A stretch of DNA of 64,000 nt from NCBI RefSeq assembly GCF_003790525.1, contig NZ_CP033635.1. One strand, given 5' to 3'. Both the position numbers and the translations under genes were made by a program. This document shows, piece after piece, positions 9,450 to 57,994 of the stretch. Position 1 is the stretch's first letter. The number at the start of each line of letters is the position of its first letter. The notes beneath the pieces are model-generated. The model was not told the DNA's origin. It saw nothing but the letters and a program-made list of their open reading frames with translations, and searched no databases. Source of the DNA: Escherichia coli (GTDB taxonomy: Bacteria > Pseudomonadota > Gammaproteobacteria > Enterobacterales > Enterobacteriaceae).

Positions 9450-9553
9450 AATTCTTGACCTCTCTTTACTTCCTTTTATGGTAAGGGGCTGGACGCTACA
9501 TTGTTAGCCAGATATTCTGCCCGGTATGTTCAAATTTCCTGAATGAGAACGAA

Positions 9554-10450
9554 ATGGCCAAAGAAAGGGCATTAACGCTGGAAGCACTACGGGTTATGGA
9601 TGCGATCGATCGCCGGGGCAGTTTTGCGGCGGCGGCGGATGAGCTGGGACGCGTGCCTTCCGCACTTAGCTACACCATGCAAAAATTGGAAGAAGAGCTG
9701 GATGTGGTGCTGTTTGACCGCTCGGGCCATCGCACCAAATTCACCAATGTCGGGAGGATGTTGCTGGAGCGAGGGCGCGTTTTGCTGGAAGCCGCAGATA
9801 AACTGACTACCGATGCGGAAGCTCTCGCGCGCGGTTGGGAAACGCATCTCACCATTGTGACCGAAGCGCTGGTACCGACACCTGCCTTTTTCCCGTTAAT
9901 CGACAAACTGGCGGCAAAAGCCAATACCCAACTGGCAATTATCACCGAAGTGCTGGCGGGGGCGTGGGAACGGCTGGAGCAGGGGCGGGCGGATATTGTT
10001 ATCGCGCCGGATATGCATTTTCGCTCCTCGTCGGAGATCAACTCGCGCAAGCTCTATACGTTAATGAACGTCTACGTTGCCGCGCCTGATCACCCGATTC
10101 ATCAGGAGCCGGAACCGTTATCTGAAGTGACGCGCGTGAAATATCGTGGAATTGCGGTGGCGGATACCGCTCGTGAGCGCCCGGTATTGACCGTACAGCT
10201 ACTGGACAAACAGCCGCGTTTAACGGTGAGCACGATTGAAGATAAACGTCAGGCATTACTGGCGGGGCTTGGCGTGGCGACGATGCCGTATCCGATGGTC
10301 GAAAAAGATATTGCGGAAGGGCGGTTGCGTGTCGTCAGCCCGGAATCGACCAGCGAGATCGATATTATTATGGCCTGGCGTCGTGACAGTATGGGGGAGG
10401 CGAAATCCTGGTGTCTGCGGGAAATTCCCAAACTTTTTAGCGGAAAATAA
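9554..10450 (+). CDS. yhaJ: LysR-family transcriptional regulator
   Basis: 298-aa ORF with N-terminal HTH region (RVMDAIDRRGSFAAAADELGRVPSALSYTMQKLE...) typical of LysR regulators. Confidence 0.85.
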   Translation: MAKERALTLEALRVMDAIDRRGSFAAAADELGRVPSALSYTMQKLEEELDVVLFDRSGHRTKFTNVGRMLLERGRVLLEAADKLTTDAEALARGWETHLTIVTEALVPTPAFFPLIDKLAAKANTQLAIITEVLAGAWERLEQGRADIVIAPDMHFRSSSEINSRKLYTLMNVYVAAPDHPIHQEPEPLSEVTRVKYRGIAVADTARERPVLTVQLLDKQPRLTVSTIEDKRQALLAGLGVATMPYPMVEKDIAEGRLRVVSPESTSEIDIIMAWRRDSMGEAKSWCLREIPKLFSGK

Positions 10451-10500
10451 TATTTGTTATTTTTAATAAAAAGGGGCGAAATATCGCCCCAATTCTAAGA

Positions 10501-10857
10501 TTAATTTGAACCAAACTTCGGATCGTTTCCGTAACGATTGCTGCCAGAATTGCCTTCTAAACAGGCAAATACAAACAGAACTAACCAGCCAATGACCGGT
10601 ACCAGATAGAGAAGCGCCCACGCACCTGAACGGTCAGTATCGTGCAGACGACGAACGCACAGAGCAATGACCGGAATGATTGTTGCTGCCAGGTAAATGA
10701 GAGAAAGGAATGGAAACTCTAAACCTAAAATCAATTGAATGACATTGATAATAGCGCCGACGATGGCGTTAATCAGAGTAAACATCCAGTACTCTTTACG
10801 ACGTGCGCGACCAGAGAAACCAACATAATTTTTTAATACGGCTAAATACCACTGCAT
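10501..10857 (-). CDS. yhaI: DUF805 inner membrane protein
   Basis: 118-aa ORF MQWYLAVLKNYVGFSGRARRKEYWMF...RRLHDTDRSGAWALL; paralogous to the adjacent yhaH. Confidence 0.8.
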   Translation of the reverse strand: MQWYLAVLKNYVGFSGRARRKEYWMFTLINAIVGAIINVIQLILGLEFPFLSLIYLAATIIPVIALCVRRLHDTDRSGAWALLYLVPVIGWLVLFVFACLEGNSGSNRYGNDPKFGSN

Positions 10858-11098
10858 AAAAACATCCCTTTAATTAAAAGTGACGAAAGTCTATTCCGGG
10901 TATTGTGTAAATGCTATTCGTATCTTTCTTTTTCGGATGTTATAAAGGTTTTGATATTTAAGATAAATACATGGTTATTTTTTATAGGTAATTTATATAA
11001 CGATATTGAAATATTTTAAATAAACATTAGTAAATTATTCATTCATCAACATGATGATAAAAGCCGGATGAGTCAGACATCCGGCGAGGAGATTTGTT

Positions 11099-11464
11099 TT
11101 AAGGTTCCAGTTTTGGATCAGGTCCAAAGCGGTTTTCGCCTGGCGTACCCGCCTGGCAGTTAAAGACGATGATAATAAGCCAGCCGATAAACGGGATTAA
11201 GAACAGCAGTGCCCACCACGCCGAGCGGTCGGTGTCGTGCAGGCGGCGGAACTGAACTGCCCACCATGGTAAAAACACCAGAATACCGTAGATTGTCGTC
11301 AGGATGCCTTCGCCACCGGCACGTTGCCAGCCTAACATTTTATCCAGTAGCCCCAGCACGAACGTAAAGATGATGTTGACCAGAATAAACATCCAGTACT
11401 CTTTGCGCCGCGCACGACCCCGGAAACCGACATAATTTTTTAGTACTTTCAGATACCAGTCCAT
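11099..11464 (-). CDS. yhaH: DUF805 inner membrane protein
   Basis: ORF 11099..11485; start chosen at MDWYLKVLKNYVGFRGRARRKEYWMF (internal Met) by analogy with yhaI and K-12. Confidence 0.8.
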   Translation of the reverse strand: MDWYLKVLKNYVGFRGRARRKEYWMFILVNIIFTFVLGLLDKMLGWQRAGGEGILTTIYGILVFLPWWAVQFRRLHDTDRSAWWALLFLIPFIGWLIIIVFNCQAGTPGENRFGPDPKLEP

Positions 11465-11597
11465 TTTTGCCTCAATTTTGCTCAATCACTTGTTTTTAAA
11501 GCAGCAAATTAAGAATAGACGTGAATGAAATGGCAGTAAATATTATCTCTATGAATTAATAAGGCGCTGTGAAGGATAGGGGCAAGCGCAAAATTGC

Positions 11598-11700
11598 CAG
11601 ATGCGCTACGCTTATCTGGCCTGCGCGGTCATTGCAACATATTGAATATAAATGTTTTGTAGGTTTGATAAGGCGTTTACGCCGCATCCGACATGAACAA
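11598..11700. repeat. REP element cluster
   Basis: Contains ...gataaggcgtttacgccgcatccgaca... REP consensus between yhaH and yqjG. Confidence 0.5.
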
Positions 11701-11746
11701 CATGCACTTAGCTAATTATCAGAGGCACATCGTAAGGTGCCTTTTT

Positions 11747-12733
11747 TTAACCGAAGCGAACATCTCGTCCATGCGGTTCATCGAGATCCTGCCACGGACC
11801 AATTGAAATAATCCCCGTAGGGTTGATGGTCTTATGGCTGCGGAAGTAATGATTACGGATGTGATCGAAATTGACTGTTTCGGCAATTCCCGGCATCTGG
11901 TAGATATCGCGCAGGAAGCCATACAGATTCAGGTAATCGCTGATGCGGTGCTTATCACACTTGAAGTGGGTCACATACACTGGATCAAAACGCACCAGCG
12001 TGGTCCACAGGCGAATATCGGCTTCGGTTAGCTGGTTGCCGGTCAGGTAACGGTGCTGACCTAAAATCTGTTCCAGTCGCGCCAGCGATTCAAACACTTT
12101 CGCCACCGCCTCGTCGTAAGCTTGCTGGCTGGTGGCAAAACCGGCTTTATACACGCCGTTGTTAACAGTGTCATAAATCCAGCCGTTAAGTTCGTCAATT
12201 TTCGTTTGCAGGGCTGGTGGGTAGTAATCACCCGCTTTCGCGCCCAGCGCATCAAACGCGGTATTGAACATGCGTATGATTTCTGCTGATTCGTTGCTGA
12301 CGATGGTGTGGTTCTTTTTGTCCCACAGCACGGGAACAGTCACTCGTCCGCTGTAGTGTGGATCGGCGTGGAGATAAAGCTGATACAGAAATTCATGTTG
12401 ATAGAGCGTGTCGCCGGTTGCTCCCGGAAAACTGTCATCAAAGGTCCAGCCGTTTTCCAGCATCAGCGGGTTCACTACGGAAACGGAAATAAACGGTTCC
12501 AGTCCTTTGAGTTTACGCATGATCAGCGTGCGGTGCGCCCACGGGCAGGCGAGTGAAACATAGAGATGATAACGATCTTTCTCTGCGATAAAACCGCCTT
12601 TGCCAGTGGGGCCTGGCGCGCCATCGGCAGTGAGCCAGTTACGAAATGCGGAAGCTGAACGTTGAAATTTACCGCCGGTAGATTTGGTATCGTACCAGGT
12701 GTCATGCCAGACGCCGTCAATCAGTTGACCCAT
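11747..12733 (-). CDS. yqjG: glutathionyl-hydroquinone reductase (GST Xi class)
   Basis: ORF 11747..12916; start placed at MGQLIDGVWHDTWYDTKSTGGKFQRSAS... (328 aa) with cat at 12731-12733. Confidence 0.88.
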   Translation of the reverse strand: MGQLIDGVWHDTWYDTKSTGGKFQRSASAFRNWLTADGAPGPTGKGGFIAEKDRYHLYVSLACPWAHRTLIMRKLKGLEPFISVSVVNPLMLENGWTFDDSFPGATGDTLYQHEFLYQLYLHADPHYSGRVTVPVLWDKKNHTIVSNESAEIIRMFNTAFDALGAKAGDYYPPALQTKIDELNGWIYDTVNNGVYKAGFATSQQAYDEAVAKVFESLARLEQILGQHRYLTGNQLTEADIRLWTTLVRFDPVYVTHFKCDKHRISDYLNLYGFLRDIYQMPGIAETVNFDHIRNHYFRSHKTINPTGIISIGPWQDLDEPHGRDVRFG

Positions 12734-12980: not shown

Positions 12981-13373
12981 TTACCACTTTTTATTCAGCA
13001 GGCGGTCGATGCTATACGCGCCTGGACCGGTAATTGCCAGCAGCAGGAATCCGCCAGAAATCGTCAGGTTTTTCATGAACATCAGCGAGTTGACGCCTTC
13101 AGCAAAGTTGCTGTGAAATAAAAATGCCGTCAGCAGCGTAAAGCCCGCAGTAAACAGGGCTGTGGTACGTGTCAGGAAACCGAACAGGATTGCCAGACCA
13201 CCACCAAACTCAAGCAGAATCACCAGCGGCAGCATAAAGCCGGGGACGCCCATTGCTTCCATATATTGTTGGGTACCCGCGTAGCCAGTAATTTTTCCCC
13301 AGCCTGCGGTAATAAACAGAATCGGCATTAAAATACGCGCTACCAGTACACCAACATCTTCTAATTTTTTCAT
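12981..13373 (-). CDS. yqjF: DoxX-family inner membrane protein
   Basis: ORF 12981..13463; start at MKKLEDVGVLVARILMPILFITAGWGK (130 aa) by K-12 recall. Confidence 0.8.
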   Translation of the reverse strand: MKKLEDVGVLVARILMPILFITAGWGKITGYAGTQQYMEAMGVPGFMLPLVILLEFGGGLAILFGFLTRTTALFTAGFTLLTAFLFHSNFAEGVNSLMFMKNLTISGGFLLLAITGPGAYSIDRLLNKKW

Positions 13374-13558
13374 CATACTCTCCACTGCGCCGCTCAGGCT
13401 GCTGATTGTTTTTTTGTGCAAGGGCGCGCTATTAGCGTCGTTGCTGTCGATGGAGAGAATCATAAACGTGGCGAAGCGTGATTGTTAGCAAGGAAAATTG
13501 TCAAAAATCTTCAAAAAATTTGAGGGATAAGGCCGGAATGGCTCCGGCCAGAGGGAAG

Positions 13559-16506: not shown

Positions 16507-17283
16507 TCATTTACTGCCGCTGGTGGCTGTATCGAGATGCACCACCGGGTTTTCGGCGAACAGATAGCGGTCGGCATTGAACTCGAAATCGTCGCTGGTT
16601 TCGTTAAATAACATGATCTTGGTGTTTTCCAGGTGCTGCCACATTGCCAGCTTAGCAGCATGAGGATCTTTGCGAATCAGCGCCTTGAGGATTTGATCGT
16701 GGTCATCACACCAGTTATCGACGGTACGGGCATCAATGTGTTCGTGCAGTTTTTTCCAGTACGGGTTATGACTACGCTGGGTCCACATTTTTTCAACGAT
16801 AGCCGCCAGGGCGGAGTTCTGCGTCGCCAGGGCTACCTGAATATGGAACTGCAAATCCCACTCGGAATCACGGAAGCATTGTTCGCCGCGCGCCTGCTCC
16901 TGGATGGCCATCAATTTCATGATGTCCTGTTTTGTGACCTGAGTTGCCGCGAACTCGGCAATATTACTTTCGATGAGCTGGCGGGCTTGCAGTAGCTCAA
17001 ACGGACCGTAATTGGCAAACTCCATATTATTGTCAGCCGATTGCTGATGGCGCGGCTGGTTGGAAACCACATGAATACCTGAACCTTTACGCACTTCGAC
17101 ATAGCCTTCAACTTCCAGCATGATGATGGCTTCACGAACCACGGTGCGGCTGACGTTTTTTTCATCGGCAATAAAGCGTTCGGCAGGCAGTTTATCACCT
17201 ACCAGATAGACGCCCTGTTCGATGCGCTCTTTCAGATCAGCGGCAAGTTGTTGATACAAACGGCGTGGTTCAGTGATTTCCAT
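16507..17283 (-). CDS. exuR: GntR-family hexuronate regulon repressor
   Basis: ORF 16507..17346; start at [24 protein letters not shown] (258 aa); N-terminal GntR HTH plus FCD domain. Confidence 0.9.
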
Positions 17284-17572
17284 ATGCGTCTCCAGGAGTG
17301 GAATGCGGACAAAGTTATCATACCACTTTATGCATGCGTATGCCATTGTTAAAATATAAATCGAATGATTGAAATAATATTATTTATTGATGTTATGAAT
17401 ATTAATATATTCCTAAAATTGATTATGTTGAATTGTGAAAAAACATATTTTTCAGTAGGTTGTATTTTTTTGAGAATAAATAATTTTATCTAAAGATGCT
17501 TTTTTGTGTTGACTTGAAAAATAGTATGATTTCTAATGCGCCAACTTTTTATGAAATAATTTAACTGATTAA

Positions 17573-18289
17573 ATGGTGGCGAAAATTAATCGATTATTAC
17601 GGCTCGGGCCTGTCTTACTTCTGTGCACATCATTTTTCGCACAATCTAATATGACTGTATATCCTATGTCTGTATCTATAAACAGTCAGGGAGAAGGAAG
17701 TGTTCGTGTAATATCGAAAACGAATGAAGTCCAATATATAAAGGCAACCGTATTTCGTATCGATAATCCATCAACACCACAAGAAAAAGAAATCGAAGTA
17801 ACTTCAGGCGATGCAAACCAACTTGTGATAATGCCGCCCAAATTTGCTTTGCCTGGCGGTAGTAGCAAAACCGTGCGTTTTGTGGCAATGGAACCTGAGC
17901 AAAAAGAAAAAAACTATCGGGTTAAATTTGAAGCTGTACCCAGCATTGATGATGCAACAGATAATAAAAAAGATCTCTCCATGCAATTAACGGTTAACTT
18001 AATTTGGGGGATTGTTGTCAGCGTGCCACCTCAGCAGCCTGTGGCAAAGTTAGATATTAACGCCGATAAAAAGCTAATCAATAATGGCAATCAACGTCTG
18101 AAGATATTAACCATTGCCTATTGTAAAAATAGTGGTTCTGCGGAGTGCAGAACACAGACCGTAAATAAAAACATTTTCCCTGGTCAGGAAAGAGTTTTAG
18201 AAAGCATATCTGGCTACGATAAAATCGTTGTCAAATATAATAACTGGATCACCAAGGACAATGGCGAGTTTGAGCTGGCGGTCCATTAA
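17573..18289 (+). CDS. class-5 fimbrial periplasmic chaperone (CfaA/CooB-like)
   Basis: 238 aa with signal peptide; ...NMTVYPMSVS... and ...KNYRVKFEAVPS... parallel CfaA motifs (NFMIYPIS, YRVYFEAV); first gene of a chaperone-pilin-usher-adhesin array. Confidence 0.85.
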   Translation: MVAKINRLLRLGPVLLLCTSFFAQSNMTVYPMSVSINSQGEGSVRVISKTNEVQYIKATVFRIDNPSTPQEKEIEVTSGDANQLVIMPPKFALPGGSSKTVRFVAMEPEQKEKNYRVKFEAVPSIDDATDNKKDLSMQLTVNLIWGIVVSVPPQQPVAKLDINADKKLINNGNQRLKILTIAYCKNSGSAECRTQTVNKNIFPGQERVLESISGYDKIVVKYNNWITKDNGEFELAVH

Positions 18290-29661: not shown

Positions 29662-30627
29662 TCATCCAACCCGCTGCTTATCATGCCGATAATTCACCCA
29701 GGCGTTGATAATAAACGTCATCACCAGAATGCCAAACACCACGCCCAGCGAGACGGCGATCGGAATATGGTAGAAGTCGACAATCAGCATCTTGATACCG
29801 ATAAACACCAGAATCACCGCCAGACCATATTTGAGCATCGAGAAACGCTCTGCCACACCTGCCAGCAGGAAATACATCGCACGCAGGCCGAGGATCGCAA
29901 ACAGGTTTGAGGTCAGCACAATAAACGGATCGGTGGTCACGGCGAAGATAGCCGGAATACTATCCACGGCGAAAATCACGTCGCTCAACTCCACCAGAAT
30001 CAGCACCAGCATCAGCGGCGTGGCATACAACAAACCATTCTTACGCACAAAGAAATGCTCGTTGTCGATGGTGTCGGTCATGCGTAAATGACCGCGTAGC
30101 CAGCGCACCAGCGGCTTGTCGCCAATGCCTGATTCATCTTCATGGGCGAGCGCCATCTTCACGCCGGTAAACAGCAGGAAGGCACCGAAGATATACAAGA
30201 TCCAGTCGAACTGTGAAATCAGCCAGCTACCAGTGAAGATCATGATGGTACGCAGAACAATCGCCCCGAGCACGCCATACACCAGCACGCGACGTTGTAA
30301 TGCCGCCGGAACAGAGAAATAGCTGAACAACATCAGCCAGACAAAGACGTTATCGACCGCCAGCGATTTCTCAATCAGATAACCGGTGAGGAAGGCCAGT
30401 GCCTGTGGATCGGCAACGGCGCGACCTTCGGTTTGCACCAGATACCACCAGAAAGCGGCGTTAAACAGTAACGACAGCGTCACCCAGACCAGCGACCAGG
30501 CCGCAGCCTGTTTCATGGTCATGGCATGTGCCCCACGACGCCCCTGCAACAACAGGTCGATAGCCAGCATAATGGTGACAACAACAGCGAATCCGCCCCA
30601 TAGCAACGGCGTGCCGACAGTATTCAT
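29662..30627 (-). CDS. alx: TerC-family membrane protein (putative Mn exporter)
   Basis: 321-aa multi-TM ORF; synteny with K-12 alx (ygjT). Confidence 0.88.
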
Positions 30628-30639
30628 AGAAGTTCCTTA

Positions 30640-30890
30640 CACATAAAAAAACGGCCAACGTCGGAAGACGTCAGCCGCTGCTTTTTATGCATAGACCTCG
30701 CCTTCCGGCAAGGTCTCACTTACAACAAAAAAGGAATACGTCTGCGTATTCCTTTCGGGTTGCCCGGTGACCGGATGTGGTTTTTCACACATCGTAATGA
30801 CGATCGACCGGCAATGAAGTTACTCCCCTTTGCAGGTAACAAAGTATGACAGACCATTCAGTCAGTCAATGGTCTGTTACATACCTTTTA
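30640..30890 (-). ncRNA. sraF: alx 5' leader (SraF / yybP-ykoY Mn-riboswitch-type element), approximate bounds
   Basis: About 280-bp untranslated gap upstream of alx. By established knowledge the alx leader is a structured pH/Mn-responsive RNA; I did not verify the fold by eye. Confidence 0.4.
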
Positions 30891-30910
30891 CACTGTTTTA
30901 CTTTGGCAAT

Positions 30911-56178: not shown

Positions 56179-56957
56179 AATGTTAAATTCTTCCGTCTAT
56201 TGCATAGCTGTTTCCAGTAGAGAAACTTGATACAGTCCTTTGTCAGGACATTGATACAGAGTTAACAGCCTCTACGAAATGGGAATCAGTTATGCAGTGG
56301 CATTATACGATGCTGAATCTAATACGATATCCTTAGCGTTTATTCCTGATTTTTTTACGAGCATTCCCTTTTGTTGCATATTGCTCAGGACGCAAATGAT
56401 TTTACGGTTATAGCCCTCTACAGTCACGTCACTTTCATCTGAAAATATGTATCGTTTTCATTCAATTATTATCTTTTGTCTGCACTTTAGCTTTAGAAAG
56501 TTGGCAAAAATCAACTCCCTCTTACAAGTTCTATTATCGCCAGAAGATAATTTTGTGAACTTCGTCACGTTTTCAAACTAATGTTGTGGGGGCTTTTCTG
56601 GGGAGAATTTTTGGTCACTACCCCTCCTCTTGATATCATAGATTATAACAAGATTTTTTTTGTTTTTGTCTGCATAAAATAACCTACGAATATTGTGATT
56701 TTGATTTTTATTTTGTATACCAAAAAGCATTGTTTAAGTTATTTTTATATTGTGACTTTCTTTGTTGTTATTGTGTTATTAGAAGTCAGTTAATTAAATC
56801 ATTTCTCACAATTTGATTTCTTGGTTGTGCAAATGTATTGTTTTGCTCGTGAGTTGCTGGTGCTGTTCAACAGCATACCACTACAGATAGATGTAGTGAT
56901 TTGAGCAGCTCACATGCATATACAATCTGAAAATCATGAATATATAAGGAGAGCAAT

Positions 56958-57185
56958 ATGTGGAAGCCGTTAAGAGATGAGAACCGTTTATCAATTTTGA
57001 AGATCTATGGATACACCTGTGACAGACTGGTACGAGAAAAGGAACGCCAGAAAATTACGTCTATTTCTCGTTCACAAGCCTGGAAACTGGAACGTGAAGG
57101 AAAATTCCCGCCACGTAAAACTATTGGAAAGAAATCCTGTGGGTGGTTATTAAGTGATCTATTGTGGTGGATTAGTCAGTATTAA
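56958..57185 (+). CDS. AlpA-family phage/island transcriptional regulator
   Basis: 75-aa ORF MWKPLRDENRLSILKIYGYTCDRLVREKERQKITSISRSQAWKLEREGKFPPRKTIGKKSCGWLLSDLLWWI: typical AlpA/Prophage_CP4-57 regulator pattern; strong SD (aaggag). Confidence 0.75.
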   Translation: MWKPLRDENRLSILKIYGYTCDRLVREKERQKITSISRSQAWKLEREGKFPPRKTIGKKSCGWLLSDLLWWISQY

Positions 57186-57247
57186 CCTTATAGTATCAGA
57201 ATAATATATATTTCTATATTTTAATTTTATAATTAAAAAGGAGTTTC

Positions 57248-57994
57248 ATGATGAAACGTGTCTCTTTCTCTCTTGCAGAAACATATGAAGCTGATGTAAT
57301 TAAAAAGTATCAGCATTTAAAAAAATGCTCATTTTCAGCAGCGATTAAAGAGTGTTTAAAGCTAGGGGCTCCTGTTTTAAACAGGATAAATGAAAATATT
57401 GCTGCTATAACTGATATAGAGGATAAGCTACGTCAGTTTTTTAATGAGGAACCATTTGTGCAACGGACAAAGCCTGAAATAACAAAAGGAGAGTTTTTTC
57501 ATAGCATTTATAAATCGCATATCAAATATGAATATGATGTTCTCGATAGAAAGATATTTCCTCATGAAAGCACCAGAAATGCTATGGGAGTTGCAGAGAA
57601 AAAGGGAATTAAAGAGAATGCGACCTTAATGCTGGAATATTATAAAGTTGAGAAGGCAATTTGTATTTACACGAACAGAAAAGTTTCCCATACCCTGAAT
57701 CGTGCAGGAGGGTTTTATAAAACCATTCTGATTAAAACCAGTGTTTTTGGGGATTATTTTTTTGACTTTTGCAATTCAGTTTGCCTGCCGATAGATGAGT
57801 TGATTGAGTATGGTACGAAAGAAACAGTGAGGCGACATCAGATTCGTAGTACAGGATTTTGTACTTTTCATATTCCGATTTTTTATATCAATAATAAGGC
57901 TGTAATAGTGCCTGTTCTGAGAACAGAGGAAGTTTCACAAAGTTCCAGAACAGGTGGAGATGTTATTATTATTAACCCATTTGAAGATGAATGA
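57248..57994 (+). CDS. hypothetical protein (248 aa) with possible N-terminal RHH-like segment
   Basis: N-terminus MMKRVSFSLAETYEADVIKKYQHL resembles the beta-strand-helix start of ribbon-helix-helix proteins; remainder unassigned; SD aaggag. Confidence 0.55.
   Translation: MMKRVSFSLAETYEADVIKKYQHLKKCSFSAAIKECLKLGAPVLNRINENIAAITDIEDKLRQFFNEEPFVQRTKPEITKGEFFHSIYKSHIKYEYDVLDRKIFPHESTRNAMGVAEKKGIKENATLMLEYYKVEKAICIYTNRKVSHTLNRAGGFYKTILIKTSVFGDYFFDFCNSVCLPIDELIEYGTKETVRRHQIRSTGFCTFHIPIFYINNKAVIVPVLRTEEVSQSSRTGGDVIIINPFEDE

Follow-up and report, generated by a model that had tools for sequence, protein, structure and literature searches.

yhaH and yhaI of Escherichia coli as a conserved DUF805 gene and an accessory, differently regulated, mosaic paralog

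Introduction

Two small genes of the DUF805 family, yhaI and yhaH, stand side by side on the minus strand within a 64,000-nucleotide stretch of Escherichia coli DNA (contig NZ_CP033635.1 of assembly GCF_003790525.1), the whole of which is called the window here. A previous reading, made from the letters alone and referred to below as the sequence-only reading, had described them as an ancient tandem duplication in the core genome, and the present analysis indicates that this description should be replaced by that of a conserved gene accompanied by an accessory, differently regulated and mosaic paralog. The two genes are probably two separate one-gene units, encoding paralogous DUF805 inner-membrane proteins that differ in evolutionary status and in regulation. 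In this explanation yhaH would be the conserved resident of the yqjF-yqjG-yhaH-yhaJ-yhaK neighbourhood in Enterobacteriaceae, expressed in ordinary growth, with a product that some phages would exploit as an inner-membrane infection factor. yhaI would be an accessory second copy of low GC content, carried in a cassette of ~650 bp that comprises yhaI with the terminator behind it, preceded by an AT-rich control region and the yhaH terminator, and that would replace the ancestral Escherichia junction between yhaH and yhaJ.

The promoter region of yhaI would be weak and dependent on activators, kept silent by nucleoid proteins of the H-NS type, and its control region would be opened by Ler in enterohaemorrhagic E. 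coli (EHEC) and by the Cpx envelope-stress pathway once this is activated. Within E. coli, yhaI would be polymorphic both for its presence and for a 174-bp haplotype block that was either imported or anciently maintained. At the protein level, the charged motifs of the family (GRxxRxEYW, RRLHD, and NxxGxxP) are all predicted to lie at the cytoplasmic surface, and YhaH may form a homo-oligomer to which induced YhaI could add subunits or in which it could replace them. The anatomy, paralogy, distribution, mosaicism and gene fusions described below were established by sequence analysis, and the regulatory and phage phenotypes are those of published studies.

The locus and the relationship of its two products

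The window comes from E. coli, since positions 10300-11700 are 100% identical to strain SMS-3-5 and to several other strains, and the RefSeq gene order at the identical SMS-3-5 sequence is yhaK (−), yhaJ (+), a DUF805 gene (−), yhaH (−), and yqjG (−). The synteny yqjG-yhaH-yhaI-yhaJ-yhaK is the same as for the K-12 orthologs, where yhaH (b3103) and yhaI (b3104) likewise lie between yqjG and yhaJ in the same orientation, are annotated as DUF805 inner-membrane proteins, and include an identical YhaH. The K-12 spacer between the genes differs from that of the window at 3 of 241 positions, but YhaI of K-12 is only 85% identical to that of the window, codons 46-103 representing a second haplotype with 69% identical DNA. 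The pair itself is already annotated and ordinary; it has long been part of the E. coli 'y-ome' and is no new kind of element.

Two open reading frames (ORFs) were found exactly where the sequence-only reading had placed adjacent minus-strand paralogs (Table 1). Their products share 63 of 118 residues in a full-length BLASTP alignment (53% identity, E 2e-44), which covers the motifs KNYVGF.GRARRKEYWMF and RRLHDTDRS..WALL that had been quoted as shared. That reading had named a pairwise alignment as its check and a lack of similarity as its refutation, and the similarity proved significant across both proteins. Both also cover the full Pfam profile of DUF805 (PF05656) far above its gathering threshold of 25.7 bits, with 108.9 bits (E 2.5e-31) for YhaI and 120.9 bits (E 4.5e-35) for YhaH. 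An alternative TTG start of yhaH at 11485, giving 128 aa, was dropped in favor of the ATG at 11464, as the family alignment begins with MDWYL and a GAGG Shine-Dalgarno sequence stands upstream.

yhaH is core and yhaI is accessory

A yhaH match is present in 5,418 of 5,426 complete E. coli genomes, as expected of a core gene. Full-length yhaI occurs in 4,353 of the same genomes (80%), and about 1,070 (~20%) lack both yhaI and the spacer, with about 1,050 showing only the cross-match to yhaH. If a core gene is one present in nearly all genomes of a species, the claim of core status stands for yhaH and fails for yhaI, which is missing in sister taxa as well. The YhaH protein WP_000384145.1 is identical in SMS-3-5, K-12, O157:H7, IAI39, ECC-1470, M9, W444, and DA33137. 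Across the genera of Enterobacteriaceae YhaH is 73-88% identical, whereas YhaI-type proteins are only 56-65% identical between genera.

In strains CFT073 and E2348/69, which have no yhaI, only about 34 bp separate yhaH from yhaJ. The DNA from the last two yhaH codons through the yhaJ stop is replaced in CFT073 by about 45 bp with a different hairpin, and the E2348/69 region matches in the same truncated manner. The reference strains recognised among those without yhaI belong to phylogroup B2. Relatives outside the species were reached through protein look-ups, and a scan of contigs gave no Enterobacteriaceae nearer than Pantoea, Proteus or Hafnia. The profiling of single against duplicated copies that the sequence-only reading had proposed gave a mixed picture, with the pair in most E. 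coli and in Citrobacter rodentium, and with yhaH alone in the fifth of E. coli genomes mentioned above, in Salmonella, Klebsiella pneumoniae and Escherichia marmotae, and in Escherichia sp. E2562. Superficieibacter has three DUF805 genes and Intestinirhabdus only the yhaI type. The third gene of Superficieibacter electus, which encodes 145 aa that are 33-35% identical to the other two products, lies upstream of the yhaH and yhaI-type genes in what is a three-gene array, and an Ldh_2 gene is inserted beside yqjG in that genome. A search of plasmids returned mostly mislabelled chromosomes and megaplasmids and no sign of a mobile yhaI.

The junction that joins yhaH to yhaJ in the single-gene state, TAATAATTAAGCACCTTGnAAAAGGTGCTT, contains a hairpin and is common to CFT073, E. 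marmotae and E2562, with substitutions specific to each species. A shared junction with such species-specific changes suggests that the single-gene state has been inherited vertically in Escherichia. From these sequence comparisons, the single-gene state looks ancestral in the genus, and the low-GC yhaI cassette appears to have been acquired later in non-B2 E. coli.

The spacer as the probable control region of yhaI

The sequence-only reading was accurate in describing a very AT-rich spacer of about 240 bp. Its 241 bp have a GC content of 27.8%, falling to 22.9% past the yhaH terminator, in a window with a mean of 49.8%, and 205-bp windows of 25% GC or less make up only 0.33% of the 64 kb, which places the spacer among the most AT-rich stretches. 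Rather than being a separate element, it is made up of the yhaH terminator and, beyond it, ~200 bp of DNA upstream of yhaI. Both genes have a Shine-Dalgarno sequence and a strong terminator to themselves, so that yhaH and yhaI are two monocistronic units. A GGGGC...GCCCC hairpin like the yhaI terminator also stands 3′ of the yhaI-type genes of C. rodentium and Intestinirhabdus alba.

The spacer varies little among eight E. coli strains, at 1-4 of 205 positions, and nucleotide diversity (π) within E. coli is 0.012 for the spacer and 0.009-0.012 for the cassette, compared with 0.051 for the intergenic region between yhaH and yqjG. A footprint alignment of the regions upstream of yhaI-type genes in E. 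coli, C. rodentium, Intestinirhabdus, and Superficieibacter pointed to a candidate −10 hexamer and to a conserved upstream block (Table 1). The hexamers aligned to TAGACT are TATATT in C. rodentium, TATGTT in I. alba and TATACT in Superficieibacter. The CpxR-like pattern that marks one site in the spacer has 10 matches in the window against 3.65 expected.

Table 1. Features of the yhaH-yhaI locus, in coordinates of the window.
Feature	Position	Strand	Description
yhaI	10501-10857	−	ORF, 118 aa; DUF805 inner-membrane protein; RefSeq CDS WP_001198783.1; haplotype A (hapA) allele here
yhaH	11099-11464	−	ORF, 121 aa; DUF805 inner-membrane protein, conserved paralog; WP_000384145.1
Spacer	10858-11098		241 bp, AT-rich; yhaH terminator and yhaI regulatory/promoter region
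yhaH intrinsic terminator hairpin	11063-11085	−	Terminator scan; −15 kcal/mol, z −4.69
yhaI intrinsic terminator hairpin	10473-10490	−	Between convergent yhaI and yhaJ; terminator scan; −16.3 kcal/mol, z −4.55
yhaI Shine-Dalgarno AAGGGA	10865-10870	−	Read from sequence; AAGGA, AGGGA or AGGGT across four genera
Candidate yhaI −10 hexamer TAGACT	10888-10893	−	Predicted from the phylogenetic footprint
Conserved upstream block ATTTATCTTAAATATCAAAACCTTTATAAC	10939-10968	−	30 bp; candidate regulator-binding or UP region; common to the Superficieibacter yhaI-type upstream region
CpxR-like box ATAAACATTAGTAAA	11020-11034	+	Weak candidate; pattern search, one mismatch from GTAAA-N5-GTAAA
yhaI mosaic segment, codons 46-103	10549-10722	−	Loop 1, transmembrane segment 2, RRLHD loop, hydrophobic segment 3

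Elsewhere in the window, two overlapping CpxR-like boxes with one mismatch each lie at 9455-9479 in the divergent yhaK-yhaJ intergenic region, and a perfect CpxR consensus, GTAAAACAGTGTAAA, is found at 30887-30901 (−), ~260 bp ahead of the start codon (ATG) of an ORF of 321 aa at 29662-30627 (−). The region between yhaH and yqjG (11465-11746) is the part of the locus that varies most among E. coli strains, with the π of 0.051 given above and indels of 10-11 bp, and contains palindromes of the repetitive extragenic palindromic (REP) type, including a partial, sub-threshold match to naRNA4 at 11662-11698. The most AT-rich stretch of the window is at 17274-17620 (minimum 19.5% GC per 205 bp), flanked in the SMS-3-5 annotation by exuR and a fimbrial chaperone gene, and further low-GC stretches occur at about 56592-57360. 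The start of yqjF (12981-13463) is ambiguous, its longest ORF having 160 aa, as called in Escherichia sp. E2562, compared with 130 aa for the RefSeq DoxX protein.

Published regulation and phage phenotypes

That the pair has no assigned function, as the sequence-only reading had it, is true at the biochemical level, yet regulatory phenotypes have been published for both genes and a phage-infection phenotype for yhaH. In EHEC, yhaI is the gene most strongly activated by Ler outside the locus of enterocyte effacement, by 36-fold, and it is not in the Ler lists of enteropathogenic E. coli (EPEC) (PMC3891560). The absence of yhaI from EPEC strain E2348/69 would explain why Ler-dependent activation is seen in EHEC and not in EPEC. 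Overproduction of CpxR in MG1655 raised yhaI 3.2-fold on arrays and 40.3-fold by quantitative reverse transcription PCR, which equals the response of spy (PMC2731931). The O157 and K-12 spacers differ from that of the window at 1-2 of 205 positions, a near-identity by which the published regulation of yhaI should transfer to the window. yhaH is under a very different form of control, being a validated, repressed target of the small RNA SdsR in Salmonella, where YhaH protein rises toward stationary phase (PMC5137417). The published papers on the YhaJ regulon make no mention of yhaH or yhaI.

The AT-richness of the locus and its activation by Ler suggest that yhaI is silenced by H-NS-type proteins. 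Its GC content (43.7%) and that of the spacer lie below the window mean, as is typical of xenogeneic genes under H-NS and Ler control, and yhaI also resembles AT-rich genes silenced by H-NS and derepressed by Ler in its 23%-GC upstream region, its patchy occurrence among strains, its very low basal expression and its response to Ler. It differs from such genes in that the cassette is tiny (~650 bp, one gene), has no mobility genes, and lies at the corresponding place in several genera.

Strain TK001 with a mutation in yhaH resists phages PhiWec188 and PhiWec190 and becomes sensitive again when complemented (bioRxiv 10.1101/2024.11.29.626071, PMC12695924). In this respect YhaH resembles inner-membrane phage host factors such as NfrB, used by N4-like phages, since a frameshift or stop mutation in yhaH likewise gives complementable resistance, here to two phages of the Stephanstirmvirinae; YhaH differs from factors of this type in having no known transport function.

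Two diverged haplotypes within yhaI

The window and K-12 differ within yhaI mainly in one sharply bounded segment of 174 bp (Table 1), in which 54 positions distinguish the window from K-12, O157 and IAI39. Synonymous divergence (dS) is 1.68 in this segment, with a nonsynonymous divergence (dN) of 0.21 and a ratio (ω) of 0.125, whereas dS is 0.026 in the remainder of yhaI and 0.06-0.11 in yhaH, yhaJ, and yqjG. Eight strains fall into two haplotypes, hapA in SMS-3-5, ECC-1470, M9, and DA33137 and hapB in K-12, O157:H7, IAI39, and W444, and the segment does not vary among the four hapB strains. Intragenic recombinant alleles of yhaI are also present in the protein database. Gene conversion from yhaH was considered as the source and ruled out, as identity to yhaH in the segment is only 51-56% for either haplotype. 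On the sequences compared, the pattern would fit either a patch imported from a lineage that has not been sampled or a long-standing polymorphism subject to purifying selection. The name yhaI is given in RefSeq only to the K-12-type (hapB) allele, leaving the hapA allele of the window unnamed, and a search of NCBIfam gave only sub-threshold matches, no model fitting hapA YhaI.

Protein family, topology and oligomeric state

A DUF805 profile search of 1.84 billion representative proteins (E up to 1e-3) recovered 47,466 homolog clusters at 50% identity. In a 54-sequence alignment that spans several phyla, 17 residues are invariant, all of which are present in both YhaH and YhaI. They fall into three motifs, G-R-x-x-R-x-E-x-W at the N-terminus, R-R-x-H-D after helix 2 and N-x-x-G-x-x-P at the C-terminus. 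No solved structure or fold relative of DUF805 was found. YhaH and YhaI match PF05656 end to end, and the old label 'putative cytochrome' finds no support here. In Proteus spp. a DUF805 gene adjoins genes that resemble, by eye from sequence only, those of cytochrome bd oxidase subunits I and II, and this neighborhood may be the origin of the label. Clustering of the neighboring genes at 80 distant loci gave no conserved partner beyond genus-level synteny.

The AlphaFold2 model of YhaH, with a mean predicted local distance difference test score (pLDDT) of 91.9, shows an amphipathic helix at the N-terminus, two long helices, and a third hydrophobic segment that is interrupted at Pro91. A fusion of YhaH to green fluorescent protein (GFP) at its C-terminus (ASKA) fluoresces at the membrane and is dependent on YidC (PMC3225971). 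Among the 148 best-scoring representatives scanned, 38 contain two or three complete DUF805 units, joined by hydrophilic linkers with a median of 13 aa, and each unit of these fusion proteins retains the positively charged motifs; some homologs carry N-terminal zinc-ribbon fusions. In both YhaH and YhaI, lysine and arginine cluster at the N-terminus and in the loop that follows helix 2, and two proteins with the same charge bias, rather than opposite ones, are not an antiparallel pair. DUF805 proteins do resemble EmrE-like dual-topology proteins in being small and polytopic and in occurring as singletons, adjacent paralog pairs and tandem fusions. They differ in that YhaH and YhaI have the same distribution of positive charge and in that the fused units keep the same motifs, which argues for a parallel and not an antiparallel arrangement. 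From these features we infer that both termini of a DUF805 unit are cytoplasmic and that the working form has at least two units.

Origin of the pair and alternative explanations

Acquisition of the yhaI cassette fits the low GC content of yhaI at third codon positions (GC3), which is 42%, compared with 61% for yhaH (51.4% GC overall) and 57-61% for the flanking genes, and it also fits the low diversity of the cassette in E. coli. A neighbor-joining tree with 300 bootstraps supported a YhaH clade (98%) and a clade of the E. coli YhaI alleles (98%), gave 52% to a YhaI-type clade and only 16% to an exclusive clade of YhaH and YhaI. YhaI shares 54-57% identity with YhaH and 54-62% with DUF805 proteins of Paenibacillus, Exiguobacterium, Streptomyces, and other Firmicutes and Actinobacteria. 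On this evidence the split between the two gene lineages appears too old for a local duplication to be demonstrated. The sequence-only reading was thus right about paralogy and deep divergence, and its claim of an ancient tandem duplication goes beyond what the tree and the equal nearness of YhaI to Firmicute homologs allow. Tandem DUF805 arrays recur in Polaribacter, Aquimarina and Hafnia, with copies that are 50-70% identical within an array, so that local duplication is a plausible process for the family, though unproven for yhaH and yhaI. An argument for a horizontal origin of E. coli yhaI from its rate of evolution was dropped, YhaI-type proteins being equally dissimilar (56-65% identity) between all genera.

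Several observations weigh against the proposed combination of a resident yhaH and an acquired, silenced yhaI. The choice between gain and loss rests on two non-coli Escherichia genomes and two outgroup genera. In every genus pair, proteins of the YhaI type change about twice as fast as those of the YhaH type, which makes an old pair with vertical descent and losses compatible with the data, and the similar terminator behind yhaI-type genes in E. coli, C. rodentium, and I. alba shows that the two-gene arrangement itself is old. Mutation of yhaH alone blocks the phages, and hence YhaI does not substitute for YhaH. On the side of regulation, the CpxR-like box in the spacer lies ~146 bp upstream of the predicted start and is not conserved in C. 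rodentium; given its mismatch, distance and non-conservation, Cpx control of yhaI may be indirect. A scan of 10400-11760 for the sigma-70 consensus gave no site, so that the yhaI promoter is placed by the cross-genus footprint alone, and a scan for the H-NS nucleation motif TCGATAAATT was uninformative, with 83 matches against 71 expected. As to topology, the evidence for a cytoplasmic C-terminus is indirect, as GFP attached there may itself keep that end inside, and by classical prediction segment 82-103 would count as a third transmembrane helix.

Some of these points are shared by the strongest alternative, which is unlikely. It holds that an ancient tandem duplication in an enterobacterial ancestor made both genes part of a vertically inherited core, and that the single-gene genomes (E. 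coli B2, other Escherichia, Salmonella, and Klebsiella) arose by independent or introgressed losses. The two genes are clear homologs that adjoin on one strand, the order yhaH-yhaI-yhaJ is found again in C. rodentium and Superficieibacter, where a similar terminator stands 3′ of yhaI, the upstream footprint is common across genera, arrays of the kind just described arise repeatedly, and with YhaI types evolving fast in all genera an identity of 60-64% to Citrobacter fits vertical descent. Against this stand the lack of yhaI in 20% of E. coli and in all the examined loci of non-coli Escherichia, Salmonella and Klebsiella, the common single-gene junction in Escherichia with its divergence along species lines, a GC3 for yhaI that falls 19 points short of the yhaH value, and the bootstrap of 16% for monophyly of the two proteins. 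A variant is an old pair with a deletion allele that then moved between species.

It is very unlikely that YhaH and YhaI are kept paired as obligate partners of one hetero-oligomeric membrane complex. The many natural DUF805-DUF805 fusions and the recurrence of tandem arrays in unrelated taxa would speak for it, but yhaH occurs without yhaI in most relatives and in B2 E. coli, the yhaI type occurs without yhaH in Intestinirhabdus, each gene has a terminator of its own, the regulation reported for the two differs greatly, and a yhaH mutation by itself gives the phage phenotype.

DUF805 genes are also found on phages, and the family matches PHROG 12855 (category moron, auxiliary metabolic gene and host takeover). 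In the Shiga toxin (Stx) phages 75/02 (NC_029120.1, 16314-16703 region) and POCJ13, the ant/nin moron region contains a DUF805 ORF that is not annotated, with about 120-129 aa and 40% identity to YhaI. A speculative, and very improbable, extension of the explanation preferred here, that of a resident yhaH and an accessory yhaI, would make yhaI a horizontally cycling, normally silenced accessory subunit which on Cpx or Ler induction co-assembles with the invariant YhaH and alters its activity, including its use by phages for entry at the inner membrane, with the two long-separated TM2-TM3 haplotypes and presence or absence under balancing selection and with prophage DUF805 morons using the same trick for superinfection exclusion. 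Less credible still is the proposal that yhaI and the prophage genes are anti-phage decoys that poison YhaH-dependent entry, phage pressure maintaining both the presence-absence polymorphism and the two haplotypes. The need of PhiWec188 and PhiWec190 for YhaH, the Stx phage ORFs with their PHROG category and the deep two-haplotype polymorphism of yhaI would favor it, but no PADLOC defence-system model matched at E up to 0.01, ω is 0.125 with differences that are mostly conservative changes in hydrophobic segments, YhaH itself is invariant, and only 8 of the 5,426 complete E. coli genomes carry the prophage copy.

The least probable proposal, that the spacer carries an independent element (a small RNA, a small protein gene, or a mobile-element remnant), could appeal to its unusual conservation for non-coding DNA (π 0.012 compared with 0.051 in the yhaH-yqjG intergenic region) and to short ORFs of 30-38 codons, but these ORFs have TTG starts and no Shine-Dalgarno sequence, an Rfam search at E up to 1 placed no family in the spacer (the only match being the REP-like partial naRNA4 outside it), reading of the sequence, with no repeat search made, gave no repeats or transposase remnants, and a promoter or regulatory function, partly common to yhaI-type upstream regions elsewhere, explains the conservation.

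Implications

The explanation of yhaH and yhaI as a conserved gene and an accessory paralog brings three corrections to the earlier picture of the locus, namely that yhaI is accessory and not core, that it contains a sharply bounded block of ancient polymorphism, and that the fusions provide a model of a dimeric unit. The most useful leads are the dependence of phages on YhaH, by which one member of the DUF805 family has recently been tied to phage infection, and the fusion-based model itself. The many DUF805-DUF805 fusions offer a testable model, with termini on the same side and a dimeric unit, for an uncharacterised family of ~47,000 clusters.

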